A DNA stretch of 64,000 bases from Octopus vulgaris. Lineage: Eukaryota. This document shows, piece by piece, positions 10,616 through 59,784 of this stretch. The position numbers and the translations under genes were made by a program. The notes below the pieces were generated by a model. That model did no database searches. It saw only the letters and a program-made list of their open reading frames with translations, and was not told the DNA's origin. The number at the start of each line of letters is the position of its first letter. The first letter of the stretch is position 1. The stretch covers positions 67,270,001-67,334,000 of the forward strand of contig OX597816.1 of the NCBI GenBank assembly GCA_951406725.2, read 5' to 3'.

Positions 10616-11547
10616 AAAATATAGACTGCTCTACTTACAGTGTGCTTCTCCGGATTTATGTATTTCTAAAAACGATTTATATGTATATATATATATAATG
10701 TGTGTGTGTATGCCTGTCTGTCTCCCACCACCGATCGACAGTATTGGTGCGTGTTTCGCACACATACAGACACACATCAGATATACCTACAAAATGAAAC
10801 TAGACATTTCTGAAAAAAAAAAAAAAAATGTGATGTCAGTACGTGACCTGGCGCTCACTCACCACCCACAAAACCGACCCCGCTCCGTCATCGAAAACAC
10901 GGGAATCTGGTAAAAAAAAAAAATCGGAAAGGTCGGGTAAGGGTTGACTGTGCGCCAGGTGAGCCCAATTTTATTTTGCACATAAAATTCCAATATATAA
11001 GTCATCTACACCATCTGAAAGATATTTGAAGAAAATTTCATTAAAAAATACCCTTTTTCCTGAGAGTTATGAGAAAACAAATCCGACTCATGTGAATTTT
11101 CCGAAACTCATCGGAAAACATTTTCTCAACAAATTCGATATAATCGTCATCTACACCACCTGAAGCATATTTGTAGGAAATTTCATAAGTTATCCATTTC
11201 CTGGATGTTACGAGGAAAACAAAGTCGGGGCATGCTTGTGTAAGTATGCCTTAATAAACATTTAATAGCTGTCCACATCTAAGATTCTGAACCGGAGCTC
11301 GATCGCTACTGCCCATAAACTTATTACTATTTTAGGGTGATAATCAAAACAGCAGAACATTAAAAAATGCAGTCTCGAGAAAGTTCATAATCTTTGATCA
11401 TTTAATTACAATACTAGTTATAAAACAACGTCAGTAATTTTTCCATCCTGTTCGGAAGTGTTTAACACATGGAGACATTTCTGAATTACGTAACAACAAC
11501 AAAAGTAAACAAACGAATGAATAAATCTCAAAGAAGCTCAATAATAC

Positions 11548-12030
11548 CTCTGATTTTTGACTGAACTTGTCAGGGTGAAGGATTCTTTGCAAATCTTTAT
11601 ATCGTCGTGTCAGTATATCACTATCGATTTCAAAACCTTCCTCGAGTCCTAGTAATTTAAAATATGTGAGGTTCTTGGAAGGCGAAAGAATAGCACCGCA
11701 AAAGCAGAAGAAAATATCTTTGTTTGGACTTCTAGTTTTATGACATTTCCAGCATTGTGTGTTGTAATTGATGGGTGTTTGGTTGCTGAGTAATTTCTTT
11801 TGAATTATCCCCGTTTCGATTAATGCTGGAGGAGTCGCCAGGGACACACGCAATGTCAATGCTTCACATGTGTTCCACTTTTTAACAAACGAAGACCAGC
11901 ATTTCTTTCCGTTGTTATTTGTGAATAATAACAAAGCTGGGAATCTTCTTGCTTTCCTGTGACACTGGATAACATATCTATATAACATAGTAGTTAAGGT
12001 AGGAACAGTGGAAGTTGTGCGGACGGACAT
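11548..12030 (-). CDS. HSCB: HSCB/Hsc20 Fe-S cluster co-chaperone, coding exon 1 (161 codons: presequence, Cys motif, J-domain)
   Basis: ATG at 12030; basic, Ser/Thr-rich N-terminus typical of a mitochondrial presequence; CWKC...FFCFC motif; J-domain YFKLLGL...RYKDLQRILHPDKFSQKSE with HPD; donor GAG|GTATTA after 11548, phase 0. Confidence 0.95.
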
Positions 12031-14461
12031 TCTTTTAAGAAAGTCAGTAATGAGTTGCTTCTAAAACTTGAAATGTGCTTCGCACGTGTAATATCGTTGC
12101 GAATAGAATGAGACGAAGATTGAATAAATTTTTATTTATTATTATTTAAAAAATCATATTTTGAAATTCACATAATTAAATAAGGTTGTTCAGATTAATT
12201 ATAAATTTATTTTAAAAACAAGTTACATATAATTCATTGTATAGCTTCGAATTTGAAAGTGAAAACACGTGAACACTTGTTCAACTACGTCAATTTAATT
12301 ATATATTAAATAATTGGATAACGTTAGAAGTTACAAGTTACGATTCCAAATGTCTTCGTAAATTATATTCCTCTCTCTCGTCAACCATTTCCAGATATAT
12401 ATTATTTTACTGAAATAAAGTAAAACTGGACTAATCACTTGAAGTTATATGACAGATTTTTTATTTATTTTTAATATTTACAAGCACGAAAAGTACTTCT
12501 GGACGATCGATAAATTCCTGCTTGCTAAGCCGGTGAAATAGGTTCGATTCTAGGTTGAGGCTATTTCACTTCACTTGTATTACTAACGACCTTGTAAGAG
12601 GTACAAACGTCCCACCTTCCTGTCCTGTTTATTCTAGAATACTGGGAATTTGTTTATTTTTAAACGGAAACAAGAAGAGAAAAGCATTAAGTTTTTGTCT
12701 TGCCCACCAAGTGGATTATAAAAGAATAGTGATGACAGAAGTAATAACTGTTCCAAAAATAGGAAGAAACCCAGACATTTGAGAGGAAACTTTAATAAAT
12801 ATATATGAAATAAATAAATAACCCCAATTACGAAACGTGGAGAGAGAACACATATGGGGATGTGGTTGTTCATAAATTTTTCTTTTTTTTCATCGTAGAA
12901 AAATATATTTCGAATGAAATTTCCGTTGTTCTTTGTGCAGTTTTTCAGTATCTGGTACAAATTTGAAGTGATTTCCGATCTTTTCTAAAAGATGGCCAGA
13001 ATTTTCTACTTAACTAAATAATTTGAAACTTCGTATACTGGTAGAATGTGTCAAAAGAAAACATTAATTTCTATTAGTTTTTTGGAGAAAAATGTATTTT
13101 CTAACTTTTACGTAGTTTAATTCTTCGAATTTTAACCAATCGTATTCTCTGTTTTGACCTCAATTCATTTACTTTCTACAATAAGCACAAAGCCTGAAAT
13201 TGTTAGATTGGGAGCTAATCAATTACATCATCCTCAGTTTTCAACTGGTAATTATTTTATTGACCCTGTAGCGATGCTATGTCCATATTTCGGCTGTTTC
13301 ACGTTAAATAGTCCTAATATGGCTCTTACAGGAATTTTGTCTGCAAGTGGTCACATGACCATACCTGTGCGTGCCAATTAATCAAACCTTTCTGCACCAC
13401 AGCCAAAATTATATCCTGTCTGAAGCTACCCGATGGCTATAAAAATAAAGGATTGCGGCGAGCTGGCAGAAACGTTAGCACGTCGGGCGAAATGCGTAGC
13501 CGTATATCGTCTGCCGTTACGTTCTGAGTTCAAATTCCACCAAGGTCGACTTTGCCTTTCAACCTTCCGGGGTCGATAAATTAAGTACCAGTTACGCACT
13601 GGGGTCGATGTAAACGACTTAATCCGTTTGTCTGTCCTTGTTTGTCCCCTCTGTGTTTAACCCCTTGTGGGTAGTAAAGAAATATATAAAAATAAAGAAT
13701 TGCTTTTGAGATTTCAGTGAAGATATTTTTGTCATTATGTTTTTGTGTTTTCCCGTGTAAATCTTCATCTTCAAGAAGCACAAGGAACCTATGTATTTTA
13801 ATTAACAGAAGTATCCATGTACACCAGTTGCTATATTTTCTTTTAGCGGCGAGATAACTGGCAGTCAACTTGTCTTTGTATTTCTTGATGTTCTTTATCA
13901 TGAATCTTATTAAACCAGAAGATTATAATAATACCAAAGCCTTAGCCACATGCATCTTTTCTACCTCGCTAAAAACCCCTAAAAGATAAAAAGCAAAGTA
14001 AACCTCGACGGCATTTGAACTCAGAGCATGAAGACGGACGAAATGCCGCTAAGCATTTAATCCGGCACTAACGACTTAGGAATAGAAATAGAATTATTTT
14101 TAACGATCTCAACACGCGCACACACACACACAAAATGATCAGAGAATTATCATCAGTTAATTTTTTGAAGTACGAAATGTTTTTGCTTTTTTCGTGTGTG
14201 TGTGTGTGTATGTGTGTGTGTGTGTGTGTGTGTGCGTGCGCGCGTGTGGATTAGATCTAATGTGTTGCCTTTGATGCATGTTAATTTATTGATAGGTTAA
14301 CAACGACAAAAATTCTCTTGATTTCTGTTCTTCGTGGTTGTTCCGATCATGTCACTCCAGTTGAAAGTCGGAAGATTGAAATTTCCCCAGAATACAGTCT
14401 CCAAAAGAAATAGATTTAGCATAAAACTCAGTTTACGAGTTAATTAAAAGATAGAGATCTA

Positions 14462-18985: not shown

Positions 18986-19042
18986 ATGGACATGGACGAC
19001 TTGAACTCTTGGTTTGACTCTAACTATCAGAATGACTCCCAG
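18986..19042 (+). CDS. ICE1: ICE1-like gene, coding exon 1 (MDMDDLNSWFDSNYQNDSQ)
   Basis: ATG in agcATGg context downstream of a CpG-rich patch; perfect donor CAG|GTAAGT, phase 0, joins exon 2 in frame. The start codon choice is less certain than the exon. Confidence 0.7.
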
Positions 19043-25734: not shown

Positions 25735-27690
25735 CTATGCCACCGTGCGGGACTGAGCCAAAGTGGCATAGTACCAAGGGTCTGTTATCTAAACACTACA
25801 TAACCAAAAATTTACTGAACATACGAATAAAAATTCATAGGGTAGGAAGTAAGGCCAATAAGAAGTTCAATGCAATGGTAAAAAGAAGACATCCAAGTTT
25901 ATTAAGTTCAGATTGCTTTTAGTTAATCCTGAAGCTCTCAAAAATTGTCGGCTGACGCATCTTCTTTTGGCGGATTTCATTCATTTCATTGTCTAGCCTA
26001 TCGCACGCCTGCATGACGCTGGGTTTTCTGCTGCTCTGCTGCTGCATAAACTTTTGGATAGTGCTCCATGCTCTCTGGGCATCTGCAAACGAAACGTATT
26101 CCTCTTCCACAATTACCTTGTCATCTTCACTTTCCACCGGCTCTTCGTTATGCATTACCTCCTTTGCTATTTCTTCTAGAGTGAAAGATCCTCCAGTTAC
26201 GAGGCGATCGTCAGCACTGAGAAAATCAAACAGCTCAATTGTTTCGTTCTCATGTGTCTTTTCCTCGGGAGGTAAAGCTTTCCAGATCTCGAGCAGCTCA
26301 GCATCCTCTGGCTCTATTTGTATTTCCTCTTCAATAAACTTGGCTTTCGCGAAACAGTTCTTAATCGTCAATTCACTGACCTGCTCCCATGCACGCCGAG
26401 CAACGTGCAGAGAGTTGAGCAATGTAAATTTAAACTCGTTTCCTTTGTCCATGGCTTCGAGACAGCGGGACAGCAAGAGCTTTTTGTAGTGGTGCTTAAG
26501 ATTTTGTATGATTCTTTGATCCATTGGTTGGGAATTTGCTGTCGTGTTGGGCGGAAAGAAGAGCATTTGGATGTTGTCCAAGTGGACGTCAGAAGGGTGA
26601 CCAGAGAAGTTATCGAGACAGAGCAACACTTTTCAGTTTTGCTGCCCGAGTTGTCCGTCCTACGTTTGTAATATTTCTTCAAAAATTTCTGCTGTCATCC
26701 ACGCCTTCGAATTAGCCTTGTACTTCACAGGAATCTCATTGTTCTTAAACACACGAGGTTGCTTGGAATTTCCGATCACCAGAAGAGGTAGCTTATTGCT
26801 GCCGCTTAAGTTTGCTCCGACCAAAAGAGTGATTCTTTGCTTGCTTTTCTTTCCCCCTGTGCACTGCACTCCCTTGAAAGCCATGGTCTTGTTCGGAAGT
26901 AGTTGCCAAAAGAGTCCAGTTTCGTCCAAGTTGAACACATCGTTCGCAGAAAACTGCCTGAGCAAGGGCCACAGAACCTCTTGTTGCCACTTAATAAGAG
27001 ATTGAGAATTCACCGCTCCAGTTTCGCCCTGCACTGTCTTGAACGTGATGGCGTGACGATTTTTGAAATTGTCTCGCCAACCGTTGCTTGCTCTAAAGTT
27101 CGGAATGTGCATAAGCTCGGCCAGTTTAATTGCTTTCTCCTTCAAAAGTTCACCACTGACCGGCAGATTCTGTCCTCTTGCTTGTTTCAGCCACATTAGC
27201 ATGCCATCATTGAGCTTCGGGTTGTGAGATTGCGTCAGCTTCATGCGCTTCGATGGAATTCCAACGTTGATGGCTGCCTCGATTGCATCCTTTTTGTTGA
27301 GAATGCCCCTCACCGTGATTCTCTTGACTTCGATGCCCCATTTCTTGCTCATTTCTCTAGCCAGCTTAGACTGGTTCGGCTCGTTTTTCACAGCATCGAT
27401 AATCTCCTTCTTTTCCCTCAGCGTAAACTCAGTCTGATTGCGTTTCTGAGCTGACATTGTGTGCTACTTTCTGAACTTTTCCACAAGATTACAAATACGA
27501 AATGTACAAAATGTAGGAGTACAAAATTTCGAAAAGTTGCGTGCGCTTCAGTTTACAAGTGGCATAGTAGCGAGAGTTGAGGGTGGCATAGTAAAAATTT
27601 TTTGTTTATTATTTGGCCGGGACCATGCAAAACTGGCATAGTAGCGAGAGGGGCATAGTAGCGAGGTGGCATAGTAGCGAGAGTTGACTG
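25735..27690 (-). mobile_element. pogo/Tigger DNA transposon, near full length, inserted at a TA inside an RTE LINE
   Basis: One end TA|CAGTCAACTCTCGCTACTATGCCAC (minus, at 27690); the other end keeps only the inner TIR (CTATGCCAC at 25735). Removing the element restores the LINE frame LERNEGN-MLCWMC. Confidence 0.92.
25919..27457 (-). pseudogene. Tigger/CENP-B-family transposase, 512 codons in one frame with two internal stops
   Basis: N-terminal HTH; ASNGW; catalytic motifs FNLDETGLFW / LCLDNFSGH / QPMDQ (DD30D spacing counted); C-terminal QPTIFESF resembles a PIP box. Stops TAG at 26660-26662 and TGA at 26633-26635. Confidence 0.92.
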
Positions 27691-29355
27691 TATTACCTTC
27701 ATTTCTCTCCAGTCTACACATGTCTTCTGCATTCCGAGCCCATGTCTCACTACCATGGAGTACAGACGTTTGTACACAAGCATCATATAGTCCACTGTTC
27801 ACACTGAGAGTTCTTTTGTTGCCAACAGAGGTAATAGCTCTCTGAACTTCCTCCACCCAATTCTTATTCTAGAAACAATACTTAGAATTTCTTCCAACTC
27901 CTTTCCTACATAGTGAGAAGGGCCTTTTACCTGATGGAAAGAGAAAGTTTTATCTTCTTTCTCACTAACAACCACTTTTGTCTTAGGTAGGTTAACTTTA
28001 AGGCCCTTTGTTTCCTTTCCTGGAATTTCTTCTCCATTTCTGCTAAAGATTTTGCAATAAGAGCTAGGTCATCAGTATCTGGCAGTTCCCACAGGCATCC
28101 AGTCTTGAATTCCTCTGTTATGTCCTGGAGGACTATAATGAATATGTGTAGGGTGAGAACTGAGCCCTAGTGAAACACTGAATTTATCACTGTATTTATG
28201 GTCGACTCTCACCTTACTGACAGCACCACTGTACATGGCTTGGACAGCTCTAACGAACTACTCCTCTACTCCTAAATTCCTTAGAGACCACCATATAACA
28301 GAGCAGGGAACTGTTGAATGCTTTCTCCAGGTTAATGAAGGCTAAGTACAATGGCTTACTTTTGGCCAAGTAGTTTCCCTGCAGCTCTCTCACTAGGAAG
28401 ATGCCATCTGTGGTACTCTTCCCCAGTACAAAACCAAACTACATTTCATCTAGTTAATTCTATTTCTAATCAATTGAGCTATAATCCTCTCAGTAATTTT
28501 CATGCCTTGGTCCAGCAGTCTAATACCTCTGTAGTTGTTTCTGTCTAAGGCATCACCTTTGCCCTTGTAGCAGCCAACTATAATGCTACTACACCAGTTG
28601 TTGGGAATGGTGTCTTCCTGAATAACCTGATTAACTATACAGGTGACTAAGCTGTCTCCTACACCACCAGAAATTTTAATCATCTCAGCAGTGATTCCTG
28701 ATGGTCCAGGGGCTTTTTCTGTCTTTGTGTCTTTAATTGCCTTATCTATTATGCTGCTATCAACTCTGATGGCTGGTCCCTCAATTGGTTCGATGTTTGG
28801 TAAACTCTCCTTCTCCCATTCATTTTTCATGTTTAGTAACCTTTCATAGTGACACTTCCATGCATATTTCTTCTCTGAGCCACTAAGTGCAAGCATACCA
28901 TTATCCATTCACACACATTTCTCACCTATCACATCTCTATTTTCTCTGATACACTACTTTGCAATACTGTTCGCCTCACACCTCTGATCCTCACATTGTA
29001 GGACATTTGCAAATCTCTTACCTAGCCACCCTTTTGGCTACCTGCTATAATTCTCTGCTTCCACTGTTTTTCCAGTCTTTCCAGGCCTGTCTTTTTGCTT
29101 TTATAACACTGTCAACCTCCTTGCTCCACCACCATGTCACCCTTGGTCTAGCCAGGACTCTGCACCTGCCACAGATTTCATCTGTAGCCCTCAGTAGATT
29201 GTCCTGCAGGAACTTCCAGTTATCTCCAACTCTTCCTCTCTTTCATCAAAAGCTCCCATTAGTAAATCTCTAATAAAACGAGGACCAATTGAAAGTTGTA
29301 TGATGTTGAAAGATATTTTTGTCTTATATTATTTGATCTATGTTTCTCTTTTCAG

Positions 29356-29414
29356 AAGTTTATTGAGAAGAATTCACTGTTGAAATCTTTGAAAGACAAA
29401 ATCATATCATCTGA
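29356..29414 (+). CDS. ICE1: ICE1-like exon 2 (59 nt; KFIEKNSLLKSLKDKIISS-D)
   Basis: tttctcttttcAG acceptor; GA|GTAAGT donor. LKDKIISSD resembles human ICE1 LKQKIINTD as recalled. Confidence 0.8.
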
Positions 29415-30423
29415 GTAAGTAAATACTAGTTTCTTTTTCTTGGACACCAGGTTTTAAGGTTTTATAGTAGATGGGAAATGGGATATAGTACATGCACTTC
29501 TAAAAAATTTATGTCAATGCTTTCCAACTTGTGTAATGCAAAATTATATAGGTATGATGCAACATTATCTTTCGTTAGAACAGAACAGCTGACTGGCTTC
29601 TGTGCCGGTGGTACATAAAAAGCACCATTTGAGCATGATCGTTACCAACGTTGCCTTACTGGCACTTGTGCTGGTGGCACGTGAAAAAACATTCGAGCGA
29701 GGTTGTGGTCAATACCACTGGACTAGCTCCTGTGCCGGTGGCACGTAAAAAAACACCATTTGAGTGTGGCTGTTACCAGTACCGCCTGATTGGCTCTCGT
29801 GCTGGTGGCACGTAAAAGCACCCACTACACTCTTGGAGTGGTTGGCATTAGGAAGGGCATCCAGCTGTAGAAACTCTGCCAGATCAGATTGGAGTCTGGT
29901 GCAGCCATCTGGTTCGCCAGATATCAGTCAAATCGTCCAACCCATGCTTGCATGGAAAGCGGATGTTAAACGATGAGGAGGAGGAGGATGATGATTGTCA
30001 ACAGTGAGAAATTTTCTCCATGAGAAAACACAGCGAATCCCTTTCTTACAGATTTGAATATGTCTCAAGCATATTTGAACTGTTAGCAAGTTTGTATTTA
30101 TTTACATCACTGCCTAATGCTGTCAGCCCGTACTAAGTGTCTGCATAGATTTTGACTTGCTGCAGGATTAGGCATATGAAGGCTTTTTTTTGACAGTGTG
30201 GGATGAATATGAAAATGACTTATTCTTTACTTGTTTCAGTCATTTGACTGGCCATGTTGGAGCACTGCCTTTCGTTGAGCAAATAAACCCCAGGACTTAT
30301 TCTTTGTAAGCCTAGTACTTATTCTATCGGTCTCTTTTTGCCGAACTGCTAAGTTATGGGGATGTAAACACACCAGCATCGGTTGTCAAGCAATGTTGAG
30401 GGGAAAAACACAGACACACAAAC

Positions 30424-30455
<32 letters not shown>

Positions 30456-30683
30456 GCATGGCCACAGTCAAATGACTGAAACAAGTAAAAGAGTAAACAA
30501 TAGCTTATATGGGTAAAAATCCACCTTACTAATTTGCTCCAAGAAGTAATATGTAAATATTCAAATTTACCAAATCCTTTCTGTTACATGATAGCTTTAA
30601 TCTAAAAAAAAAATCATTTTTGAATTTTTTGTTTTATATATTTTTTATCCTATTACTTGTAATTTTTTTTTCTCGTTTTGCAG

Positions 30684-30718
30684 TAAAATCATGAAGCTAC
30701 TTCAGACCAAGACAAATG
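30684..30718 (+). CDS. ICE1: ICE1-like exon 3 (35 nt; KIMKLLQTKTN-E), ends at a U12 donor
   Basis: tttttctcgttttgcAG acceptor, phase 2 compatible; followed directly by ATATCCTTT. Confidence 0.85.
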
Positions 30719-32056
30719 ATATCCTTTATCTACTTTTTGAGATAATATCTCATTGTTTGCTTTTTAATTTGCTGTATGAATTATTCATGTCTGTTTGTGG
30801 TTGTGTGCATGCATGTGCATACATGAACATATACAAAGTAGGTGCATTTAGATTTACAAATTGGAGGAAAAAGTACTCAACATGCTAAGCAGAGTGAATG
30901 TGTGTGTGTCTCTTTTACTCTTTTACTTGTTTCAGTCATTGACTGCGGCCATGCTGGGGCACTGCCTTTAGTCAAGCAAATCGACCCCAGGACTTATTCT
31001 TTGTAAGCCTAGTACTTATTCTATCGGTCTCTTTTGCTGAACCGCTAAGTTACAGAGGACATTGGTTATCAAGTGATGTTGGGGGGACAAAAACAGACAC
31101 ACAAACACTCACACATATATATATACATATATACGACGGACTTCTCTCAGTTTCCATCTACCAAATCCACTTACAAGGCTTTGGTCGGCCTGAGGCCATA
31201 GTAGAAGACACTTGCCCAAGGTGCCACGCAGTGGGACTGAGCCCGAAACTATGTGGTTGGTAAGCAAGCTACTTACCACACAGCCACTCCTGCGCATCCC
31301 TAAAGACACACACATACATGATGGGCTTTGGTCAGCCCAAGGCTATACTACAAGACACTTGCCCAATATACCATGCAGTGGGTCTGAATCTGGAATCCTG
31401 CAGTTGGGAAGCAAACTTCATACCAAGCAGCTGAAAAAGTTACCCACCCCATAATTGCTATGGTGCTTGAGCTTTGTGAAATGTTGTGCATGAAACCTGA
31501 GTGCCAGATTGACTTTGAAAGATTTTTGCTTTTGTATTATTTTTCAGTTTCAGGTGTATCTATCTACCTGTCTGCTTTCCACCACACACACACACACATA
31601 CACACACATACGCACATACACACAGAGCAATGTTTAGAAAATGTAGGATTGTGTAAAGGTAATAAATGGAATAAGAATTCTAACATATTATATTTTGTGA
31701 TGTAAATATTTTTCGAAGAGCTGTAACTGATGTGATATACTTTTTTAGAAATATAATTATATGGTATAGTTCTTTTTGGTGTTACACAAACTGTTGTGTT
31801 CTATTCACTAGCGTAGCTAGAGTGTGTGCCACCCAGGGCGGCCCCTCTATTTTCCACTCCCAGATCCCACAAAAACCACATGTTGCCTACAACTGAATGA
31901 AAAGTGCTGCCCAAGGTGGGCCACCCTTATAGTCCCCACCCCAGCTATGCCAGTGATTCTATTCATACCATGTTATTGTGTTCGTCCTGAGCTAATACTT
32001 GGTTTGATTTAAAAAATGTCTTTACCAAAATTAAGATAATCCTTAACAGCTATCAC
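30719..32056 (+). other. U12-type (minor spliceosome) AT-AC intron, 1338 nt
   Basis: 5' site ATATCCTTT at 30719-30727; branch point TCCTTAAC at 32040-32047; terminal CAC at 32054-32056. Only this junction keeps the frame open. Confidence 0.92.
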
Positions 32057-32117
32057 AGTCAGCATTTCTTAAGAAAAAGTTGCAGAATTTAGCCGAGTGT
32101 TTAAAGCAAAAAGAAAG
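32057..32117 (+). CDS. ICE1: ICE1-like exon 4 (61 nt; SAFLKKKLQNLAECLKQKE-R)
   Basis: Follows the AC acceptor; open coiled-coil-like frame; donor AAG|GTTTGT, phase 2. Confidence 0.85.
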
Positions 32118-35404: not shown

Positions 35405-35468
35405 GACTTCTCAAGAACTGCGTTCACAAGTCAACAATCTTCTCAAGGGAGCTGAACTCAATAAGAAG
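35405..35468 (+). CDS. ICE1: ICE1-like exon 5 (64 nt; TSQELRSQVNNLLKGAELNKK)
   Basis: tttctctttgtcAG acceptor; AAG|GTAAAG donor; phase 2 to 0. Confidence 0.8.
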
Positions 35469-38509: not shown

Positions 38510-38590
38510 CTTAAAGCAGACCATGAGTTGGCTTTGACTAAGAAAGATTCAATTATTGAGGACTTGAAGCTGAAAATCTCTTACATTGAG
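38510..38590 (+). CDS. ICE1: ICE1-like exon 6 (81 nt; LKADHELALTKKDSIIEDLKLKISYIE)
   Basis: atttttcAG acceptor; GAG|GTAAGT donor; phase 0 to 0. Confidence 0.82.
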
Positions 38591-41441: not shown

Positions 41442-41551
41442 AGTGATAATAAGATCTTCCGTGAGTCATCTGAAGCCTATCTTGCTGAAAAGAGCAAACT
41501 AAAGGAGTTGGTCTCACAGAAGGAGCTTGCTGAGAAAAAATATTCATTAAA
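41442..41551 (+). CDS. ICE1: ICE1-like exon 7 (110 nt; SDNKIFRESSEAYLAEKSKLKELVSQKELAEKKYSL-N)
   Basis: tttttctacttcAG acceptor; AA|GTTAGT donor; phase 0 to 2; K/E/L-rich. Confidence 0.8.
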
Positions 41552-42318: not shown

Positions 42319-42356
42319 CATTGAGAAGAAAGACAAGCGGATTAAAGTGTTAACAC
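42319..42356 (+). CDS. ICE1: ICE1-like exon 8 (38 nt; IEKKDKRIKVLT-Q)
   Basis: tttctgttgcAG acceptor; AC|GTGAGT donor; phase 2 to 1. Confidence 0.8.
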
Positions 42357-42539
42357 GTGAGTTTATAATATTTTAATATTCCTTTTTGTTTTCCTTTTCT
42401 TTTTTATTATATGCTAGTGCTATCAGTTTTGAATTTTAACCCTTACAGAACTGGAATTGTCAATAAGTAATTTTTCTAAAGTACACTGAGAGACAGTAGT
42501 TCTGATTGTCATGCCATTTTCTATCCTTATATAATGCTA

Positions 42540-42935
42540 GGTAGCCATCTACTTTGTCTCCAACAATTCGGTGCGACACCAGTGCAGAATCACCTCCCTT
42601 AGACAAGTCATCCTAACAAGACGTCTGCGTTGGCTGGGTCATGCCTTCCATCGTCAACCAGGGTAATTCATCTACAAAGCAATTGCCCCAGCTCCCCTTC
42701 AGGATTGGCAAAAGTGATGTGGTGGACAACGAAAAACCTGGCTGATGACAGTCAAGGCTGATCTGGAACCCAACCTAGGCCCCCATATCTATGGCGTTTG
42801 CCGCTGGAATAGGGAGTGGTTGGAGATCACGCGATCGTTAGCCTCGTCTGGTCGGCATTTGTGAGAGATGCAGCATTGAGGATGAATGAAGCCAGCTCAA
42901 CCCACCCCGGATGAATGCTGTCCCAAGTCAAGTCA
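42540..42935 (+). mobile_element. Degenerate LINE 3' fragment (RTE-like)
   Basis: RRLRWLGHAF...GGQRKTWLMTVKADLE with stops; caagtcaagtc tail. Confidence 0.6.
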
Positions 42936-44685
42936 TGTATCTTCTGTCCAGCAGGAAACCTTTTTCTGTCTATCATATTTTCACCTCCCAACAACACCAG
43001 GCATAAACCTGCCTCCTCCTCAGTGGAATAGTCTCTATTCTCTTAACATGGCAGCCTCACTTGTACAAGTAGCACAAAAATGTATCCAGAACACTCTGTA
43101 AAGTAGTTGGCATTAATTGGAGCATACATTGAAACTTGGCACATTCTTTTATTTCGGAACCTATCAAACCATCCAACCCATACCAACATGGATGGATGTT
43201 GGCATGGGTTGGATGCTGCTGGTGATGACAAACCTTCAGTTTTAAATATAAATTTTTGCGCCTTTTTATGAGACCACAGTGACATGCTTGAACACCAATA
43301 AGCATAATTAAACAGCTAAACTGGTCAATGTTTAATCAGCATCCATTTACAAAAGACTTTCCACATCATAGAAAGAAAGAAATTATGATAATTATCTGTA
43401 AAGATAATTATTAATTAGTGTGAAGATAATTATTAATTAGTGTTATAGAGAAGTACAAATATACTGTTAATGTGGATATGAAATGTGAAAATATTAGTGA
43501 GTAAACTTCTCTTCGTGTGTGTTTGTGTGTGATCCTCATCATTTAATGTTTGTTTTTCATGCTTGCTTGGGTTGGGTGGTTTGACAGGATCTGAAAACAC
43601 AGGGCCACGCCAAGTTCCAATGTCATCTTTGGTATGGATTCTACTGCTGGATGCCCTTCCTAAAGCCAACACACTTTGCATAGTGTACAGGGTGTTTTTT
43701 TTCCATGTCACTGATACTATTAAGATTGCCAAGTGACTAGCAAGACAAGAAGAAAGAACAGGCAGAATGAAAAAGGAAAAAAAGCCCGCTTGACTAAATG
43801 GGGTGTAGGATGTATTTGAGGAGATATGATGGTTCAATACCAGATGTTTGTCATACACACACACACACACACACACACACATAACATGGCCTTGCTTGGT
43901 TGGGTCTATACGTGTTACTTTGAAATCATAATTCCATAAAATTTGTTTATGGGGAGAAAAATATTGAGAAATATCAATAGATGTGTGAGTGAGAAAGAAA
44001 CGAGGAGGGAGGTTTTGGGATTTAGCAATTTCTTTTTAAACCGAAAATGTTTCTCTCAAATGCTTAGTGAAAAAAGAAGAAAAAATGGCCAAAATCACAT
44101 TGGACTGAGGTGGTGAGGGGTTGGCAGGGTGAAAAAAATTTTTTTCCGAAAAGATGCCTTCCATGATTCTGAAGACTTTGATGGAAAACAATGGAAAAAA
44201 ATCCGTCAAAATTGAGAAATTCCAACTTATGTGGACTGTCTGATCTGAAACATCCATTTTCCAGAAACTCCTCCCCATTGCCCCCTTCTAAAAATTTTGC
44301 TTACAAATTTCTTTATAACCATAATCTACACTGTTTGAAAGGTATTTGTATAAAATTTCATTAAAAAATACCTATTTTCCAGAATGTCATGAGGGGACAA
44401 ATGTCAAGTCTTGTGAATTTTCCAAAATTCCTCTCCCCAACCCCCTCAGAAAATTTTTCCAACAAATCTTTACACACACCCAATCTACAGGAAAAAAGCA
44501 ATTATTTGGTGAAAGTTTTGTTAAAAAGTATCCATTTTTCTGGAAGTTATGAAGCAACAAAGTAGGTGGGGTATTAAACTATAGTTATGACTTTTTTCAA
44601 TAAAAGTTAACGTTAATGGATTAACATTAACTTCCATTATATTTTCAAAGAATTAACGGATTAACAAAGTTAACTTTTTGATTAA

Positions 44686-44906
44686 CCCTTTCGTTACCAA
44701 CCTGGCTGAAACTGCCTCTAGCTCAGTAGTACAAATGTCTTATTTGCATAAGTTTTGAATTAAAATCTTCCACCAAACCTTAGTCACAATTTATGTTCCT
44801 AACACTAGCTTAATAATAACTGAGTTATTTTACTAAATTCTTTGTTATGTTTAAAATAATTGAAAGAAACACAGAGCATCTCAAAGTAAATACGGTAACG
44901 AATGGG
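44686..44906. mobile_element. piggyBac-type MITE. Inverted copy near 53343-53570; relatives near 45920-46138 and 58380-58843
   Basis: TTAA|CCCTTTCGTTACC...GGTAACGAATGGG|TTAA. Confidence 0.8.
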
Positions 44907-45466
44907 TTAATGGTATCCACCTCTGTATCTATGTATGTGCATATTTATCTGCCATTTCCTTCAGTATAACTACTTTGTCATTTATGCTTCTCGTCCTTCT
45001 CATGTCTTGATGATTCTGTCTCTCTTACTCTGTGTGTGTGTGTAGCATTTCTTTACTCCTTTGATTTATCCCTCTTTAATTCTCTCTCCATATGATGTAA
45101 AGTATAATGGGAGAAATCAGCCAACCCACATTTATGTTGGTTATGATATCTGTGTGTGTGTGTTTGTGTTACCCATACAGGTGAGTGAAGTGAAATTACC
45201 CGTATGAGTAACACCTCAAATAAAACTGCTTAGGATTGTCAACCTTCAGATTTGAACGTGTTGCAATTTATTTAATATAAATCATCTGAATGCATGTTAC
45301 TATTATATCAAAGGACACTGGGACACTTAACTGACAGAAACACATGTTGGAGTGGAATATGAAGAAAATACTTCAATAAGTAAATTTGGAAGATGTATTA
45401 TTCTCCATTCTTCATTATGATACCTTAATTATATATACACACACACACACACACATATATATCACA

Positions 45467-45768
45467 ATGGCTCAGTGGTTAGGGCAGTGGACTTGTGGTT
45501 GTAAGATCTCAGTTTTGATTCTCAGACCGGGCCTTGTGAGTGTTTATTGAGTGAAAACACTTAAAGCTCCACGAGGCTCCGGCAGGGGGTGGTGGCGATC
45601 CCTGCTGTGCTCTTTCGCCACAACTTTCTTTCAATCTTTCTTCTGTTGGCCTGCTCGCTTAGCCAGCAGGGTGGCGTCATTTGAAGGCTAAAACAATGTG
45701 AAGTGCATTGTGACCAGCGATGTGTAGCAACATCTGATAGCCTGGTCAGTCACAGTGATCACGGTAAC
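45467..45768 (+). mobile_element. tRNA-derived SINE, same head as 51625-51928 but a different tail
   Basis: tggctcagtggttagggcagtggac...ttgagtgaaaacac...aaagctccacgaggctc is shared; sequence diverges after tctttcttc. Confidence 0.7.
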
Positions 45769-46455
45769 ATATATATGCATTCAATCATATTTGAGTTGTG
45801 TTGTGCATGTTTGTTCAAGTGTCTATGTTGATACTGCTTGTAAAACAATGCTCTATGTTCATGTCCTTTGTAAATTAGCAGTTTGAAAAAAGATTGATTA
45901 AAATAAGAGCCAGACTTGACCCATTAGCATTTAAACTGGCCATATCCAGCCAAGGTATTCTACCTATTTAATGTTCAGACTGACCAGATCTTGCCTCTCA
46001 CACCTACCCTACTATGTCATTCTAAAAATAAGCATTCACATATCGAAATCACAAGGATATGAGATAATGTGTGATTAATTCAAAACATTGTGAATAAATA
46101 AGCATTACATTTGACAGAGTAATCTGAATGCTAAAGGGTTCCAAATGATCAACTAAAATCCTTCAAAGCTTTGCCTCAGGAAGACCAAAGTGTTATAACT
46201 GAAACATGTAAATGAGGAAAAGAGAATACAAGAAAATAAAGCTTGATAAATTAAAAGAAAGTAAATTTATGAAAATGAAGATAAATCCTGTATTTACATT
46301 AACCTTCTTAATATCAACAAATCCTCTTTTGAGAATTTATTTTCTGTAACTTTCAAATATTGTTTTTTTTTTTTCTTTCTATGAATGCCATTGTCCTAAC
46401 AATTTAGTAATTAGTGTTTTTCCCCCTCCATGTCTTTCTATTTGTCTCAGGGCAT

Positions 46456-46956
46456 TCAAATATTTTCATTTAAATCCGTGGGTGCTTGTTGATATTTCCT
46501 TCTATAGGACCTGATAAATCTAACAATATAACAAGTAAAAATTATAAGCAATAAAGAACAATTTATACCGACAATGATTAAACCTTCTTTAAAATAGTCA
46601 TATTTGATGTAAATGACCACATTAACCGTGGTATTCATCTTAGTTTCCACCTGCATGCATGTGTAGGAACCAGAATCCTGAACAGTAGCATTTCTTATGA
46701 ATAATGTGTTTGAGATTTGCTCAATATGATTGCCGTCATATTCATTGACCTTGGTACCATTTGGTAAAAGCCAGGTAATGTTTCCTTTGTGTGGGAGGCT
46801 GCATTCGTATTTTAAAGATTTCCCTTGTTCTTGAGGATGAGGAAATGGGTCTATTTTTAGGTCCTGTGAATGAGTTTCAGTGGCTTCACTTGCCTTGAAG
46901 ACAATGGTAATGATGACAATACATAAGACGATCAGTGGTCTTGAATCTGTAGACAT
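46456..46956 (-). CDS. Single-Ig-domain type I membrane protein, 166 aa, nested antisense in ICE1-like intron 8
   Basis: Signal peptide (LIVLCIVIITIVFKASEA); I-set hallmarks YEC...ITW...TLFIRNA...DSGSYTC; four N-glycosylation sequons (NIT, NGT, NAT, NTT); hydrophobic segment GLIIVGINCSLLLIIFTCYIV followed by basic RFIRSYRRK. Acceptor tatttttcAG 5 nt before the ATG; AATAAA on minus at 46336-46341. Confidence 0.9.
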   Translation of the reverse strand: MSTDSRPLIVLCIVIITIVFKASEATETHSQDLKIDPFPHPQEQGKSLKYECSLPHKGNITWLLPNGTKVNEYDGNHIEQISNTLFIRNATVQDSGSYTCMQVETKMNTTVNVVIYIKYDYFKEGLIIVGINCSLLLIIFTCYIVRFIRSYRRKYQQAPTDLNENI

Positions 46957-49305
46957 TATTCCTGAAAAATATATCGTACAAGAATTTAACAAATAAGGTT
47001 TTACTAACAGTTTGATATGTGTGTGTGTGTGTATGTATCATAGATATATATATGTATCATTATATTATATAATAATTTACATGTAATTAGGCATATATAT
47101 CATCATTATAGTTTTATGTCCATCTTCCATGGGTGGGATGGGTTCACAAGAGCCAGCCAGCCAGAAGCCTGCACGAGACTTCTGTGACTGTTTTGGCAGG
47201 ATTTTTACAGCTGGATGTCCTTCCTAACACCAACATCATCATCATCATCATCATCATCAAAATGGACTTAGTGCTTTTTACGTGCCACAAGCACAGGCGA
47301 GGTCAGTTTTGGTAAGGTTTTTACAGCTGGATGCCCTTCTGAGCACCAATCACTTTATAGTGTGGACTAGGTGCTTTTTAAGTGGTACCTGCACTGACAG
47401 GGTCACCAAGTACTTGCAGGACAAAAAAATCGCTTTTGAGAGGGAAAGGGGCATTGGAGAAGGTGATCTTTTGTCAGATGATGAAAGGTTAGAGTGAGAC
47501 AGAGAGACAGAAACATGTGTCTTGCTGCAGAGGAAGTACAAGATTACTGGCTGGTGAGAGAGAGAGAGAGAGATCAGGAATGAAGACAGAAACAGGTGTG
47601 CTACCGCAAATGAAATACATGGTTATCCAACCTGAGGGAAGTCAGGAGAAAGAGAGAGTGGGAGACAGCAGGATAAAGATGGTGGCAAAATGCTGGGCAT
47701 ACTCACAAGAGATGGGGGATCAGAATATAAATGGAATGGCTGAGTAAAGGAAGAGAAAGATATAGATGGTGGCAAGTGCCAGGGCATACCCTTGAGATTC
47801 AATTGCCATAATATAAGTGGCAGGATATTGTGAAAGAAGTGTGATTAAAGAGTGTGGAGTGGGGTATATATATATATATACGAGCAAAACACCCCCCCTC
47901 CAATGGACGAGGCTGATGTACTTGTGCGTACAAATGCACGTTCCCATGGCTTTATTGATCACATTCTTATCTGGAATCGATTTTTGTAATTTTTTCAAGA
48001 CTTATACTCACCCTGATACCTTTGGTATCTACATATCAAATTTGAGCGCAATCGGATGGAGGATGCCTGAGATCCTGGAAGACACACACACAGACAGACA
48101 GAATGGATTTTATATAAGATATATATGTGTCGGTGGCACATAAAAAACACCTTCCGAGCGTGGCCGTCTGCCAGCCTCGTCTGGCACCTGTGTCGGTGGC
48201 ACATAAAAAACACCATCCGAGCGTGGCCGTCTGCCAGCCTCGTCTGGCACCTGTGTCGGTGGCACATAAAATCACCCACTACACTCTCGGAGTGGTTGGC
48301 GTTAGGAAGGGCATCCAGCTGTAGAAACACTGCCAGATCTGACTGGCCTGGTGTAGCCTTCGGGCTTGCCATACCCCAGTTGAACCGTCCAACCCATGCT
48401 AGCATGGAAAGTGGACGTTAAACGATGATGATGATGATATATATATATATTATATCCTGACTCTCCATTGTTTATGACAACAAGTGTTCCAGTTGATCTG
48501 ATCAATGGAACAGCCTACTTGTGAAATTAAGATGTAAATGCCTGAGAACTCCACAGACACACGTCCCCTTAACGTAGTTCTCAGGAAGATTCAGCATGAC
48601 AAGGAGTATGACTAGGCTGGCCCTTTGAATTACAGGAACATTTTTACTTTTTACCAGCTGAGAGGACTGGAGGAACGTGAAATAAAGTTTTTGCTCAAAT
48701 GTACAGCATGCTGCCAGGAATTGAACTCCTGACCTTCTGAATACCCTAACTACTAAGCAATGCACCTTCACTATATCCTACATCCAATTATATAATTATC
48801 TATAGGAGAGTATTGTAGTTCGCTGGAAGCATTGTGTATTGTTTGTGAAATATAACATGTCTTGAATGGCACAACAATGCAGAGTGGACTATAATAACTG
48901 TTATAATTTAATTATTAATAGTCTGATATAATAATCATCATCATCATCGTTTAACGTCCACTTTCCATGCTGGCATGGGTTGGACGATTTGACTGAGGTC
49001 TCGCGAACCAGATGGCTGCACCAGACTCCAATCTGATTGGGCAGAGTTTCTACAGCTAGAGGCCCTTCCTAATGCCAATCACTCCGAGAGTGTAGTGAGT
49101 GCTTTTATGTGCCACTGACAAGAAGGCCAGTTAGGCGGTACTGGCAGCGGCCACACTCAAATGGTGCTTTTTATGTGCCACCTGCACACGAGCCAATCCT
49201 GTGGCACTGGCAATTTTGGAATATAAAAATTCCTTCTTCAAATATTGCTAGGAATTGATCGAGTCACTGCTGTAATTGTTTTTTTTCTTTCTCTTTTATA
49301 ATACA

Positions 49306-49674
49306 CTAGCACTAGCGTTGCTGGGTCATAGTGCTAGTGCATGCATATACAGCTGCGTGCGTGCGCACATACACGCGAGTACTGTCCAAATCTCTGACCA
49401 ATCACATATGCTGGCATTCATCTAGCTGGCATTCAATTGGCGTATCAAGTTTCGGGTAATTTGATTGGGTTTTGGATAGAAATTTCACAAAAAAGTCACT
49501 TCTATTGTTTTTTTAATGGCTTTGCAGGGTGATTGGGGAAATGTAAATATTTGCATGACCACCCTTGGACGGTTTTGAATGACCATAGAAAGTGCGAGCC
49601 CTCTAACTAAAAAATTGTGGATTTGTATAAAGGACACACACACACAGACATTTTGCTGTTTACATATAGAGAGA
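49306..49674 (+). mobile_element. Possible non-autonomous Helitron/Helentron-like element; similar end structure near 47880-48120
   Basis: Starts ACTAG with a short hairpin; ends (CA)n-gaca...tatagagagat, a pattern typical of such elements. No coding evidence. Confidence 0.35.
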
Positions 49675-49838
49675 TGAGCATGTTCCAGAAATGAACTGAC
49701 ATGCATCCAGCTGAAGCTAAATAATATATTGATTGCTAATTTCCCGCCTGCTATTAATTTGGGGCCCTAGTCTGTCCATGAGGATAGCTTCTAAAATGAA
49801 AATGCAAATTTGTATTGTAAATTATATTTATCAATTCC

Positions 49839-49870
<32 letters not shown>

Positions 49871-50991
49871 ATCAATCAATTATCTGCATGACTAGGTAAT
49901 TAAGTTGGTAATCACTCATTGTAGGAACTCATTTGTTGTCCAATAGTGATTTCTAACGTGTATTGATCACAAACTTTGGAGAAGGGTAGGACCACTAAGA
50001 TTCCTTCACCCTCATATTTAGCTACTTGTTATTTCATTGACCCAGTGTGCTGGTGGCACGTAAAAAGCACCATCCATATGTGGCCAATGCCAGCGCCACC
50101 TTGACTGGCTTCCGTGTCAGTGGCACGTAAAAACCACCAACTGATCATGGCCATTGCCAGCCTTCCCTGGCACCTGTGCCAGTGGCACATAAAAAGCATC
50201 ATCTGTACATGGTCGATGCCAGCACCACCTTGACTGGCTTCTGTGCCGGTGGCACGTAAAAAGCACCAACCGATTGTGACCATTGCCAGCCTTCCCTGGC
50301 ACCTGTGCCGGTGGCACGCAAAAAGCATCCACTGTACTCACGGAGTGGTTGGCGTTAGGAAGGGCATCCAGCTGTAGAAACAATGCCAGATCAGACTGGA
50401 GCCTGGTGCAGCCTTCTGGCTTTCCAGACCCCGGTTGAACCGTCCAACCTATGCTAGCATGAAAAAACGGACGTTAAACGATCATGATGATGATGAATAA
50501 AAGAAAGGGAAAATCAAGTTTGATGGGATTTGAACTCAGGAAGTGAAATGGCTGAACCAATTATCACATATTATTTTCTCCATTGCTTTATCCCTTCTTC
50601 CATCAAGCATCTAATAGTAGCAAACATACTGTGTGACTTTTTAAGAAGGTTTAGTGTAGAGGTTATACTAATCCAGTTATGTTGGCCTATGACAGGTATT
50701 TGACTATAATTAGTCATTATAGCTATAATTTATTAGAGTAGGTAAATTCTGGGAAGATAAAGAAAGAAAACTAATCTTGTTTATCATTCAGCTTTATCTA
50801 GTTATTTAATTATTTATTTATTTTTCATCACAGCTTATTAGATTAGTTACTAATGTTATTTAACCCCAGGTCACCCCTGATCCAGTAGACCTATGAACAT
50901 TCCACTATTTTCCTTTATATATATATATATATATATATATTATGGAGATGTACTCGCATAGCAAGTAATTTGATCTGAGATCGTGTGCTGT

Positions 50992-51027
<36 letters not shown>

Positions 51028-51624
51028 GACTGGAGTCTGGTGCAGCCTTCCAGCTTGCCAACCCTGGTCAAACCATCCAACCCATGCCAGTATGGACAGT
51101 GGACACTAAATGAAGATGATGACTGTTTTATCCAATATTTTTTTTTTATAAAATGGTCGAGTGTGCTTTAAAGGTTAAGAAATCACATTGTGGCTCCTTC
51201 ATTGGCTCACTAATAGAGTAATTTAGTAGAGAATTAATTAAAAGAAATTGTTGTAATTATATTATTGATAGCTGTGCATTGATGATTTAAAATGATGAAC
51301 TTCTAATAAAACTTTTATCAGTGAACAAGAGAGCACCACTCTTAAAACTTCTCTCTTATGGCATGGAAGACTATGATAAACAGAAGAACACTGAGGACAG
51401 AGCCATGGTGCCCCTCTCTTCTTCAGTTTTGAACTTGTCACTGTATTCATTGGTAACTCTCGCCTTGTTGAGAGCATGTCTTTATATGGTTTGAATGGCC
51501 TTCTGAAGCCAAGCCATTCATCTACTACTTACCTTAACACCACCCCCTACAGAACATGGAACTACACACACACATACACACATGCACATAAATAATACTT
51601 AAACTATGATCATTTATTTTTATT

Positions 51625-51928
51625 TATGCACCCTTTTCAAGCCTAGCCAGGCTCATGGGCCCAGATTCCCGGTTTCTATGGTGTATGTGTTCCCCCAGCT
51701 GGACGGGATGCCAGTCCATCGCAGCATCACTCAAGAAACGGGAAGAAAGAGTGAGAGAAAGTTGGGGCGAAAGAGTACAACAGGGGTCGCCTCCCCCCCC
51801 TGCCAGAGCCTCGTGGAGCTTTAGGTGTTTTCGCTCAATAAATATACACAACGCCCGGTCTGGGAATCAAAACCGCGATCCTCCGACTGCGAGTCCGCTG
51901 CCCTAACCACTGGGCCATTGTACCTCCA
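51625..51928 (-). mobile_element. tRNA-derived SINE (tRNA-Arg-like head; may correspond to the octopus OR family)
   Basis: A-box TGGCCCAGTGG; GGACTCGC anticodon-like arm; degenerate B-box GGTTTTGATTCC; head shared with 45467, tail shared with 32575. Confidence 0.7.
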
Positions 51929-52689
51929 ATCTATGATCATTAGTCTGACAAACGATATTTTGTTGGATTAATGATTATGGATTAAATATCTTATTCATTC
52001 TTAGACTTATTCTATGTTTATTCTAAGTCACTGGAGATAATTTGTTTTGAACTTGTTACCCCCTGGAATGTGTGTTTGTGTGTGTGTGTTTGTTTCAAGA
52101 TACATCTCACAGATACTCTGGAATGGGATCATATGAGGTTTGGAGTCTTTCACTGTCAGACCCCTTTGTCCAGTTGATCCAATCATCCTATCATTCAGGT
52201 AGCAACAAGCCTTGGGCATTCTTCTTTATTCACTATTAAGTAGGACTTCTCTCAGCAGCTTCAGTGATGGAACACACTGCTGTTTTGTCTTTGCTGCACC
52301 AATATATTTCAAATTTAAATTATATACTTGCATGAATAGTCGAATGGTGTGAATGGTGTTTTTTTTTTTTTTGACACTGTTTGAATCTCAATCACTTGTT
52401 GATAAACCAGTGCTCTTATTTAGTTGCTATGTAATCCCTTTGGCATTTAGCTCAACACATTTTGTCCAACCGAATATTGTTTCTAAATGTAGGCACAAGG
52501 TCAGCAATTTCAGGGGAAGGGATAACACTGACCCAAGTGTTCAACTGGTATTTTATTTTATCAACTCCAAAAGGATGAATGGCAATGTCAACCCTGGTGG
52601 TATTTGAATTCAGAATGTTAGGTCAGAAGAGATGCCACTAAGCATTTCTTCCAGTGCAGTAACAATTTTACCAGCTTGCTACCTTATAG

Positions 52690-53090
52690 GCATAGGAGTG
52701 GCTGTGTGGTAAGTACCTTGCTTACCAACCACATTGTTCTGGGTTCATTCCCACTGCGTGGCACCTTGGGCAAGTGTCTTCTACTATAATCTCGGGCCGA
52801 CCAAAGCCTTGTGAGTGGATTTGGTAGATGGAAACTGAAAGAAGCCCGTCGTATATATGTATATATATATATATATGTATGTTTGTGTGTCTGTGTTTGT
52901 TCCCCCACCGTTGCTTGACAACCAATGGTGGTGTGTTTACATCCCCGTAACTTAGCAGTTTGGCAAAAGCGACCGATAGAATAAGTACTAGGCTTACAAA
53001 GAATAATTCCTGGGGTCAGTTTGCTCAACTAAAGGTGGTGCTCCAGCATGGCCACAGTCAAATGACTGAAAAAACTAAAAGAGTAAAAGA
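52690..53090 (+). mobile_element. SINE family A, full-length copy on the plus strand
   Basis: ggagtggctgtgtggtaag...gggttcattcccactgcgtggcaccttgggcaagtg...gactgaaa...aaagagtaaaaga. Confidence 0.85.
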
Positions 53091-54559
53091 ATTATGTCCA
53101 ACCAAATATTGAACTAAACTAAAGACTAAATAAACTAGATAAACTAAAAGCTAGCTTTAAGAACTAGGGCTTTTAACTTTTTCAATACTGTAATATCCAC
53201 AGTATAAGTCACCTTACTGAGATATTCTGATTTTAACTTAGTCAATATATAAAGCCTTTATATTTTCCCACTTTTGTATAATCCAGTCACTTTGGTTTAA
53301 AGTGGACTACAACACAATTTTGTGCTTTTGGTGAAAAGATGTTTAACATTTTCATTACTGTATTTATTTTGAGATATTCTGTGTTTCTTTCAATTACGTT
53401 AAATATAACAAAGAATTTAGTAAAATAACTTAGCTATCATTCAGCTAGTGTTAGTAACATAAATTGCGGCTAAAGTTTGGTGGAAGATTTGAATTCAAAA
53501 CTTATGAAAACAAAACATTTGTACTCAAAGCCAGAGCTGGTTTCAGCCGAGTTGGTAACGAAAGGGTTAATGTTAAATTAAAATTGATATTATGGGAGAA
53601 TTAACTCCTAAAATATTTGTGTAATGTCAAATACTTTCTTAAAGTTGAAAGTTAAAACCCCAGTTAGTAGCAACATGTTATTTAATATTATCTGTTTGAT
53701 ACACATTACAAGACAGTCTTTTGTATTTTGATATAAATATAATTCTCTACTCTGAAATTTGACTAAAGTTAACTACAGTAGTGAAAAGGTTAATGTCAGT
53801 TGTAAGAAAGAGTGAAGTTGATATTTGCTAGTAGCAATTTATCCTGAACATTGCCGCCATTAATGCTTTATGACTGTTTTTCAATACTGATGTGGGTTGA
53901 ATAGGTCTATTTTTTAGCACAGTATCTCACCACTTTTCAAGGTCCTTCATTATTTGATGCACAAAATAGCAGAGAAAAAGACAATCATTAATCTTGTGTA
54001 TATCTTACTCTGGTCAATATTACAGATGTTGAGCAGTAATTCTGATCCTGTCAAACAAAGGTTTTTTTAACTCAAACACAAGGGATCTTATTTTATAATA
54101 AGATATATTAATAAGAGTGTATATATATGTTTATCAATTTGTGTTGCTGGATTCCTGATGTGAAATGAGTTAATGGACATGAGTTAAAGTAAGAACAGTA
54201 ATAAACAAATAAAAAACAAATATATAGTGTATTTATTTGGTAAAATTTTTTTTTTTTAAATGACATCCCAAAATACAAGTGTATATATAAATATATATAT
54301 ATATATATAGCATGGAAAGCGGACGTTAAATGATGATGATATATATAAATATATATATAAATGTAAAAATTCTATAATTATGAGTATAATTATAATTATG
54401 ATTCAGCAAAAATTTGCTTCACCACATACCGAAATTTAGAAATAGCAGTTAAAACTAACTATTTCACTACCATAAGACAATCTTCCAGACAGCAATACTC
54501 GACAACTCACACAAGTAAAGAGATATTACTGACATTATATATATACATACACACTTGTG

Positions 54560-54595
<36 letters not shown>

Positions 54596-54808
54596 CGTGC
54601 ATGGGCTTTGTAAAGTTTCTATCTACCAAATTGACTGTGGCCATGCTGGAGCACTGCCTTTAGTCAAGCAAATCGACCCTTGGATTTATTCTTTGTAAGC
54701 CTAGTACTTATTCTATCGGTCTCTTTTGCCAAACTGCTAAGTTACGGGGATATAAACACACCAGCATTGGTTGTCCAGCGATGTTGGGGGGATAAACACA
54801 GACACACA

Positions 54809-54857
<49 letters not shown>

Positions 54858-55107
54858 GACGGGCTTCTTTCAGTTTCTGTCTACCAAATCCACTCACAAG
54901 GCTTTGGTTGGCCCGAGGTTATAGTAGAAGACACTTGCTCAAGGTGCCATGCAGTGGGACTGAGCCTGGAACCATGTGGTTGGTAAGCAATTACTTGCCA
55001 CACAGCCACTCCTACACCAAAACTCTGTACAGACAGATTTTTTTTACATGCAGTACCTTCCTATGCATAGAGCGATGGCTAACCATTAACAAACACACAC
55101 ACACACA

Positions 55108-55154
<47 letters not shown>

Positions 55155-55307
55155 GTACATATATAGCATTGAAAACATATATAATATATATATTATAGTA
55201 GTTGGTTATAACAGAAATAATTGAGATTTTTTAAAATATAAATACATTTGTGCAGATGAAAAGAATTGCCTGATAGAAAAAAAAGCATGCATCACCTACA
55301 GCTTATA

Positions 55308-55359
<52 letters not shown>

Positions 55360-56194: not shown

Positions 56195-56232
<38 letters not shown>

Positions 56233-59701: not shown

Positions 59702-59784
59702 AAAATTTTGAAGGCAATAAACAAATGTTGTTAGAACTGAGAGAAAAATTCAACTCACTGCAAAAAGAAATGCACAAGCTAAAG
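59702..59784 (+). CDS. ICE1: ICE1-like exon 9 (83 nt; NFEGNKQMLLELREKFNSLQKEMHKLK)
   Basis: Long polypyrimidine tract with upstream gctaac; caacAG acceptor; AAG|GTATGT donor; phase 1 matches exon 8 across 17.3 kb. Extra symmetric exons in between cannot be excluded. Confidence 0.8.

Follow-up and report, generated by a model that had tools for sequence, protein, structure and literature searches.

Minor (U12-type) introns are defined by their donor, their branch site, the spacing between branch site and 3' end and the absence of a pyrimidine tract (Turunen et al., PMC3584512), and according to the same work new U12 introns are very rarely gained. ICE1 is among the genes catalogued as carrying such an intron. 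According to the supplement of PMC6717393, donor positions -3 to +9 read ATGATATCCTTT in both human and mouse, while the intron measures 2,780 nt in human ICE1/KIAA0947 (chr5:5437115-5439894) and 2,466 nt in mouse Ice1. The supplements of PMC6717393 and PMC11347168 also assign a minor intron to zebrafish ice1, and survey work has argued that the evolution of minor introns is largely neutral (PMC10639083). Here we describe the corresponding region of an octopus gene that resembles ICE1.

The window, i.e. the whole 64,000-nucleotide stretch of Octopus vulgaris DNA analyzed here and to which all positions refer, lies in a 2.8-Gb genome and contains 11 coding exons of this gene on the + strand. 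Exon 1 (from the ATG, 18986-19042) matches the N-terminus of the public proteins P0001 and P0007, and the loose end of a contig from run X18 runs into it. Exons 2 (29356-29414, 59 nt), 3 (30684-30718, 35 nt), 4 (32057-32117, 61 nt), 5 (35405-35468) and 6 (38510-38590) were placed by contigs, exons 7 (41442-41551) and 8 (42319-42356) by P0007, and exons 9 (59702-59784), 10 (62732-62771) and 11 (62994-63109) by reading of the sequence. The gene extends approximately 33 kb past the window with a 3.6-kb exon followed by the C-terminal exons, which carry a match to the ICE1_C family. P0007, an O. vulgaris protein, was 100% identical over an exon of 1,190 residues, and relatives were found among the proteins of O. 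sinensis, O. bimaculoides and Argonauta hians. The public names of the gene's proteins are "probable serine/threonine-protein kinase" or "hypothetical protein". Exon 2 has a tandem acceptor (29353-29358), of which the contigs and P0001 take the first AG, while the O. vulgaris models P0005 and P0007 are short of one lysine at this exon, as the second AG would yield. The large exon includes a seven-residue tandem repeat (L001:4100-4620) that varies in copy number among Octopus species.

Intron 3 (30719-32056, + strand, 1,338 nt, phase 1), for which both sequence and contigs give AT..AC ends, is cut out exactly at these ends in octopus. The joint from 30718 to 32057, for which the initial annotation had proposed a search of the reads, was present in the contigs of all four runs. 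These runs carry four study codes and two organism labels, and each contributed one contig with the joint, at depths of 65.8, 11, 9.47 and 12.3. The joint can be slid by one base, but the shifted form is without canonical ends. Each of the four contigs also joins 29414 to 30684 as well as exon 4 to exon 5, both with GT..AG ends. Since these neighboring GT-AG introns are skipped exactly in the same contigs, the molecules were judged to be spliced; that the runs are RNA was a guess and not taken from their records. In an initial mapping of the contigs, the joint between exons 2 and 3 was listed for three of the four runs and run X3 had no coverage there, while the assembled contigs of run X9 were slightly deeper around exon 3. 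Contig joints were listed at a 10% threshold, and contigs lose rare forms and give no retention rate. The identical spliced junction peptide was found in four named octopod proteins (P0001, P0002, P0007 and P0009).

The signals of this intron are those of the U12 class, as the initial annotation had stated. The 5' splice site ATATCCTTT (30719-30727, + strand) matches the consensus and is predicted to pair with the U11 and U6atac of the genome, the branch-point sequence TCCTTAAC (32040-32047, + strand) is predicted to form 6 bp with its U12, and the 3' splice site CAC (32054-32056, + strand, AC at 32055-32056) is not preceded by a polypyrimidine tract. The candidate branch adenosines at 32045 and 32046 are 11 and 10 nt away from the last base of the intron, at the lower edge of a published optimum of 11-13 nt for the distance from U12 branch site to 3' end (Turunen et al., PMC3584512). 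Exon 3 was likewise confirmed to have no usable GT donor, with GT absent inside the exon and a single GC at 30696. The other nine of the ten introns between the 11 exons are GT-AG, and the pyrimidine content near the acceptor was lowest for intron 3 (50% compared to 55-80% for the other nine), even though two of the GT-AG introns of the same gene reach only 55%. Single motifs were at chance level, with 0.61 donors and 0.50 branch sites expected per window, and the two followed each other in order within 5 kb in 5 of 300 approximate dinucleotide shuffles; the proof of the intron is therefore carried by the transcripts. None of the further motifs resembling ATATCCTT or the branch site, in the window or in the 200 kb that follow it, is positioned at a located exon end; the located exons cover the gene apart from C-terminal residues ~1617-1690 and 1746-1770. 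With its class assigned by consensus match, intron 3 is an ordinary conserved minor intron that exhibits every U12-type feature tested, and it is most likely removed by the minor spliceosome, on which the transcript would then depend.

The genome encodes the RNAs of this machinery, with best Rfam matches above the respective cut-offs for U12 (125 bits), U6atac (96.9), U11 (94.5) and U4atac (83.8). Predicted duplexes of U11 and U6atac with the donor and of U12 with the branch site comprised 6-7 bp. For U6atac, 43 of 46 scored matches exceeded the Rfam cut-off, compared to one for U4atac, two for U12 and five for U11, and most of these U6atac matches are probably pseudogenes. A published table gives 45 U6atac and 401 minor introns for O. 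bimaculoides.

Removal of intron 3 at the AT-AC junction keeps the 11-exon frame open for 248 codons in the window, as anticipated by the initial annotation, while use of the AG located 2 nt downstream leads to a stop after four codons. Retention of the intron results in an in-frame TAA at 30886-30888 (+ strand) and a product of 106 residues with the stop at codon 107; the intron interrupts codon 51 of about 1,960, leaving 97% of the coding sequence downstream. The further claim that only the AT-AC junction preserves the frame was wrong, as 67 of the 368 donor/acceptor pairs examined (in 62 the donor is a GT or GC deeper in the intron, in five it is the AT donor) and two of eight skipping patterns were open as well. 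The latter are the skipping of exons 3 and 4 (96 nt, with ordinary GT-AG sites) and of exons 2-5. None of these in-frame bypass joints was among the contig joints listed for the four runs at the 10% threshold, at which rare forms drop out, and a bypass of intron 3 under stress is possible.

Several lines of comparison bear on the identity of the gene. ICE1_C (PF25817) was the only Pfam match of P0001 (E 2e-5), with 24.9 bits against a cut-off of 27 bits, and scored 22.3 and 25.4 bits in relatives, also below this cut-off. The C-terminal 393 residues had KIAA0947, i.e. ICE1, as their first match in the Atlas (0.91, 182 shared features), while the N-terminus retrieved only generic coiled-coil look-alikes. 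The layout of an N-terminal coiled coil, a long low-complexity middle and a conserved C-terminus fits ICE1. Against 1.84 billion representatives, the N-terminal 103 residues matched two octopod proteins and two unnamed multi-stretch entries. A vertebrate ICE1 sequence was reached by none of the homology searches from the octopus protein, and searches of the genome with the PF25817 and PF10505 (ICE2 family) profiles gave no match, which carries no information where a domain is split over exons. For O. bimaculoides, the ICE1 cell in Table S8 of PMC11347168, located by counting columns, is not "no_ortholog". Any other entry in this table requires a reciprocal best hit with the human protein at E 1e-10, so that the cell amounts to a published reciprocal best hit. 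Among the three mollusc rows consulted in the same table, Lottia and Biomphalaria are listed as "no_ortholog" for ICE1. In line with the initial annotation, which had noted a resemblance to ICE1, we regard the host gene as very likely ICE1 as far as sequence comparison can tell, and the public records named kinase or hypothetical protein are very likely ICE1 as well. An ICE1 protein is expected to bind ELL, ICE2 and ZC3H8 and to drive snRNA transcription. Of these partners, the ELL family is represented by two loci in the genome, one of which (G000:C2:101005522-101006358) is an uninterrupted open frame of 423 residues and a possible retrocopy, while the other (G000:C2:162227067-162285261) is divided into exons.

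The window contains other features besides this gene. Intron 1 harbors a Tigger/pogo-type DNA transposon on the - strand (25922-27463; CENP-B_N, HTH_Tnp_Tc5 and DDE_1), which is divided into two open frames by a break near 26650. Intron 8 (42357-59701), which is rich in octopus repeats, spans 17.3 kb, more than any other intron in the window. On its - strand, a single-exon open frame (46456-46956) encodes one Ig_3 domain (E 8e-8) between a hydrophobic N-terminus and a hydrophobic C-terminal stretch, and is suggestive of a small membrane Ig protein, or of one exon from a larger gene, positioned antisense within ICE1. Exons of an HSCB-like co-chaperone (5724-6158 and 11434-12060, - strand; HSCB_C E 4e-13, DnaJ E 0.004) are arranged divergently from ICE1.

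The octopus donor context consists of the same 12 letters as in human and mouse, including three exon bases that are not fixed by the consensus. The octopus intron thus shares with its human and mouse counterparts the AT-start donor identical from -3 to +9, a U12 branch site and its status as the one minor intron of the gene, while it differs from them in length (1,338 nt) and in the branch sequence, which is TCCTTAAC in octopus and TCTTTAAT/C in human and mouse. The simplest reading of these sequences is that the octopus and vertebrate minor introns are very likely one ancestral intron. The initial annotation had proposed a human ICE1 minor intron at this point; that the human intron is catalogued and has the same donor from -3 to +9 stood up, while homology of position was deduced from the identical 12 nt at the donor, from the presence of a single minor intron early in the gene and from the published reciprocal best hit. 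The octopus gene adds one new data point, a transcript-verified protostome copy, and the ICE1 minor intron probably dates to the bilaterian ancestor. In the literature consulted, which mostly excluded subscription papers, the octopus intron was undescribed and a loop between ICE1 and snRNAs unproposed; MIDB, IAOD and intronIC may list the intron.

Alternative readings concern both the nature of the intron and its role. That the major spliceosome removes the intron, as an AT-AC intron of U2 type or via a GT-AG pair, would be in line with public model P0005, in which a cryptic U2-type donor GTAGGT (30838-30843, + strand) is joined in frame to the AG at 32048-32049, with Table S8 of PMC11347168, in which the counterpart in O. 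bimaculoides is given as "major", and with the published use of cryptic 5' and 3' sites of mouse Ice1 in cerebrum and thymus. However, all four contigs have the AT..AC ends, the donor and branch site are of the U12 consensus and the pyrimidine tract is absent. The 42 mostly hydrophobic residues that the P0005 pairing adds are missing from the other four proteins, the pairing is unlisted in the contigs, and the model, which probably mis-splices the gene, is probably a prediction artefact. The Table S8 classes depend on annotation, with intron pairs accepted at a 40% match of 20 flanking residues according to the methods of PMC11347168, and the "major" call is contradicted at least for the present genome. 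We consider it extraordinarily improbable that the major spliceosome handles this intron. It is also very unlikely that the gene is something other than a true orthologue of ICE1, or that the octopus and vertebrate minor introns occupy different positions and arose independently. The ICE1_C scores below cut-off, the generic coiled coil at the N-terminus, the nearly octopod-only outcome of the N-terminal search and the "no_ortholog" entries for Lottia and Biomphalaria (Table S8, PMC11347168) would fit such a case. They are opposed by ICE1_C being the sole Pfam family of P0001, by KIAA0947 as first Atlas match, by the fitting domain layout and by the reciprocal best hit published for O. bimaculoides (PMC11347168), while the identical donor context including the three exon bases and the rarity of U12 intron gain argue against an independent origin.

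As for its role, we consider it likely that intron 3, whose host gene is very likely ICE1, is removed as an AT-AC intron, most likely by the minor spliceosome, and that it is probably inherited and shared with vertebrate ICE1 rather than a dedicated regulatory switch. By the established mechanism, the donor would be paired first by U11 and then by U6atac and the branch site by U12, and the AC 10-11 nt downstream would be picked by distance. A few per cent of the transcripts may retain the intron and be degraded, by analogy to human ICE1, for which the supplement of PMC6800510 gives a retention of 6.5-9.0% in controls. Full-length ICE1 would depend passively on minor splicing, like the products of hundreds of other genes, and any knock-on effect on snRNA supply would likely be slight and buffered, given the stability of snRNAs and given that U6atac, the labile one, is not transcribed by Pol II. 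The long conservation of the AT-AC intron and the sensitivity of the human intron (22-40% retention) would, however, also be expected of a regulatory intron. The initial annotation had gone further and suggested a feedback link, in which minor splicing would set the level of ICE1 through intron 3 and ICE1 in turn the transcription of U11, U12 and U4atac in addition to U1, U2, U4 and U5. Were this the case, an AT-AC intron kept since before the split of molluscs and vertebrates would throttle the little elongation complex and hence all Pol II snRNA supply, the minor spliceosome would stand upstream of both spliceosomes in a slow self-reinforcing switch, and the tie between minor splicing and snRNA supply would be of relevance to RNU4ATAC, RNPC3 and CENATAC disorders. 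We regard the loop as unlikely and the throttling of all Pol II snRNA supply as similarly doubtful. In its favor, retention at codon 51 would remove nearly the whole protein; a review (PMC5493778) describes ICE1 as scaffold of the little elongation complex and as required for Pol II recruitment; and in flies, knockdown of Ell brings raised U12 back to normal, along with spliced U12-type products (PMC6199344), although the direct need of U11 and U12 genes for ICE1 rests on this one review and one fly paper. In RNU4ATAC cells, retention of the human ICE1 intron rose from 6.5 to 22% in fibroblasts, from 9.0 to 22% in amniocytes and from 7.4 to 40% in lymphoblasts (supplement of PMC6800510), and published datasets score the intron as responsive in four of nine human and two of two zebrafish sets. 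On the other hand, it is scored unresponsive in the other five human sets, among them all three morpholino sets (U12, U4atac and U6atac), no mouse row stands among the responsive introns, and the Roifman samples were not significant (ANOVA p 0.11). Human data lean against the feedback link, as other snRNAs were unchanged or slightly up despite impaired minor splicing: their levels stayed about the same in cells of RNU4ATAC patients (PMC9881141) and were not lower in RNU12 84C>T cells, with U4atac slightly up in six of eight clones (PMC7968993). ICE1 retention and snRNA levels come from different cell samples, so that this argument is indirect. In addition, U12 is stable (PMC7968993), the labile U6atac is not transcribed by Pol II (PMC5493778), and the complex also serves the major snRNA genes U1, U2, U4, U5 and U7 (PMC6199344). 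The main texts of PMC6865273 and PMC3291851 leave ICE1 unmentioned. The sign of such a loop would be positive and not homeostatic, no USSE-like tandem U12 donor was found on the + strand of the window, and in-frame bypasses are possible. Nor is ICE1 singled out, as other snRNP-pathway genes of O. bimaculoides, which a reading by column and the Ensembl identifiers suggest to be NCBP1, NCBP2, SNRPE, LSM5, LSM8, INTS4, TGS1 and RNPC3, also carry minor introns. A coupling of minor splicing to nonsense-mediated decay (NMD), where reduced minor splicing would lower ICE1, weaken decay and let mis-spliced transcripts survive, appears extremely unlikely. Human ICE1 promotes EJC-dependent decay via a putative C-terminal MIF4G domain (PMC5896957), and the C-terminal domain is the recognizably conserved part in octopus; yet Olthof et al. 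(2021) had raised this idea for Upf1, Ncbp1, Ncbp2 and Ice1, and known decay targets were not raised in their U11 knockout mice (PMC8034651).

Compared to known systems, the probable dependence of ICE1 on minor splicing has a parallel in the Integrator subunits INTS7 and INTS10 (PMC9881141), whose genes are likewise required for making Pol II snRNAs and carry minor introns that are retained upon impairment of the minor spliceosome. This parallel would also speak for a loop, as loss of protein and 3'-extended snRNAs were measured there, in contrast to ICE1, but the steady-state levels of other snRNAs remained unchanged. The USSE of U11-48K and U11/U12-65K (PMC3584512) and the Drosophila dUrp twintron (PMC4615840) resemble the arrangement proposed for ICE1 in that parts of the minor spliceosome act on transcripts of their own pathway. 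However, these loops are negative and employ tandem donors or poison splicing, whereas octopus ICE1 has productive splicing without a tandem donor and would form a positive loop. The "molecular switch" model of U6atac (Younis et al. 2013, as cited in PMC4615840) shares with the octopus gene that one inefficient minor intron may limit its host mRNA, but this switch is general to genes with minor introns, and since U6atac is not a Pol II product, ICE1 would close no loop on it.
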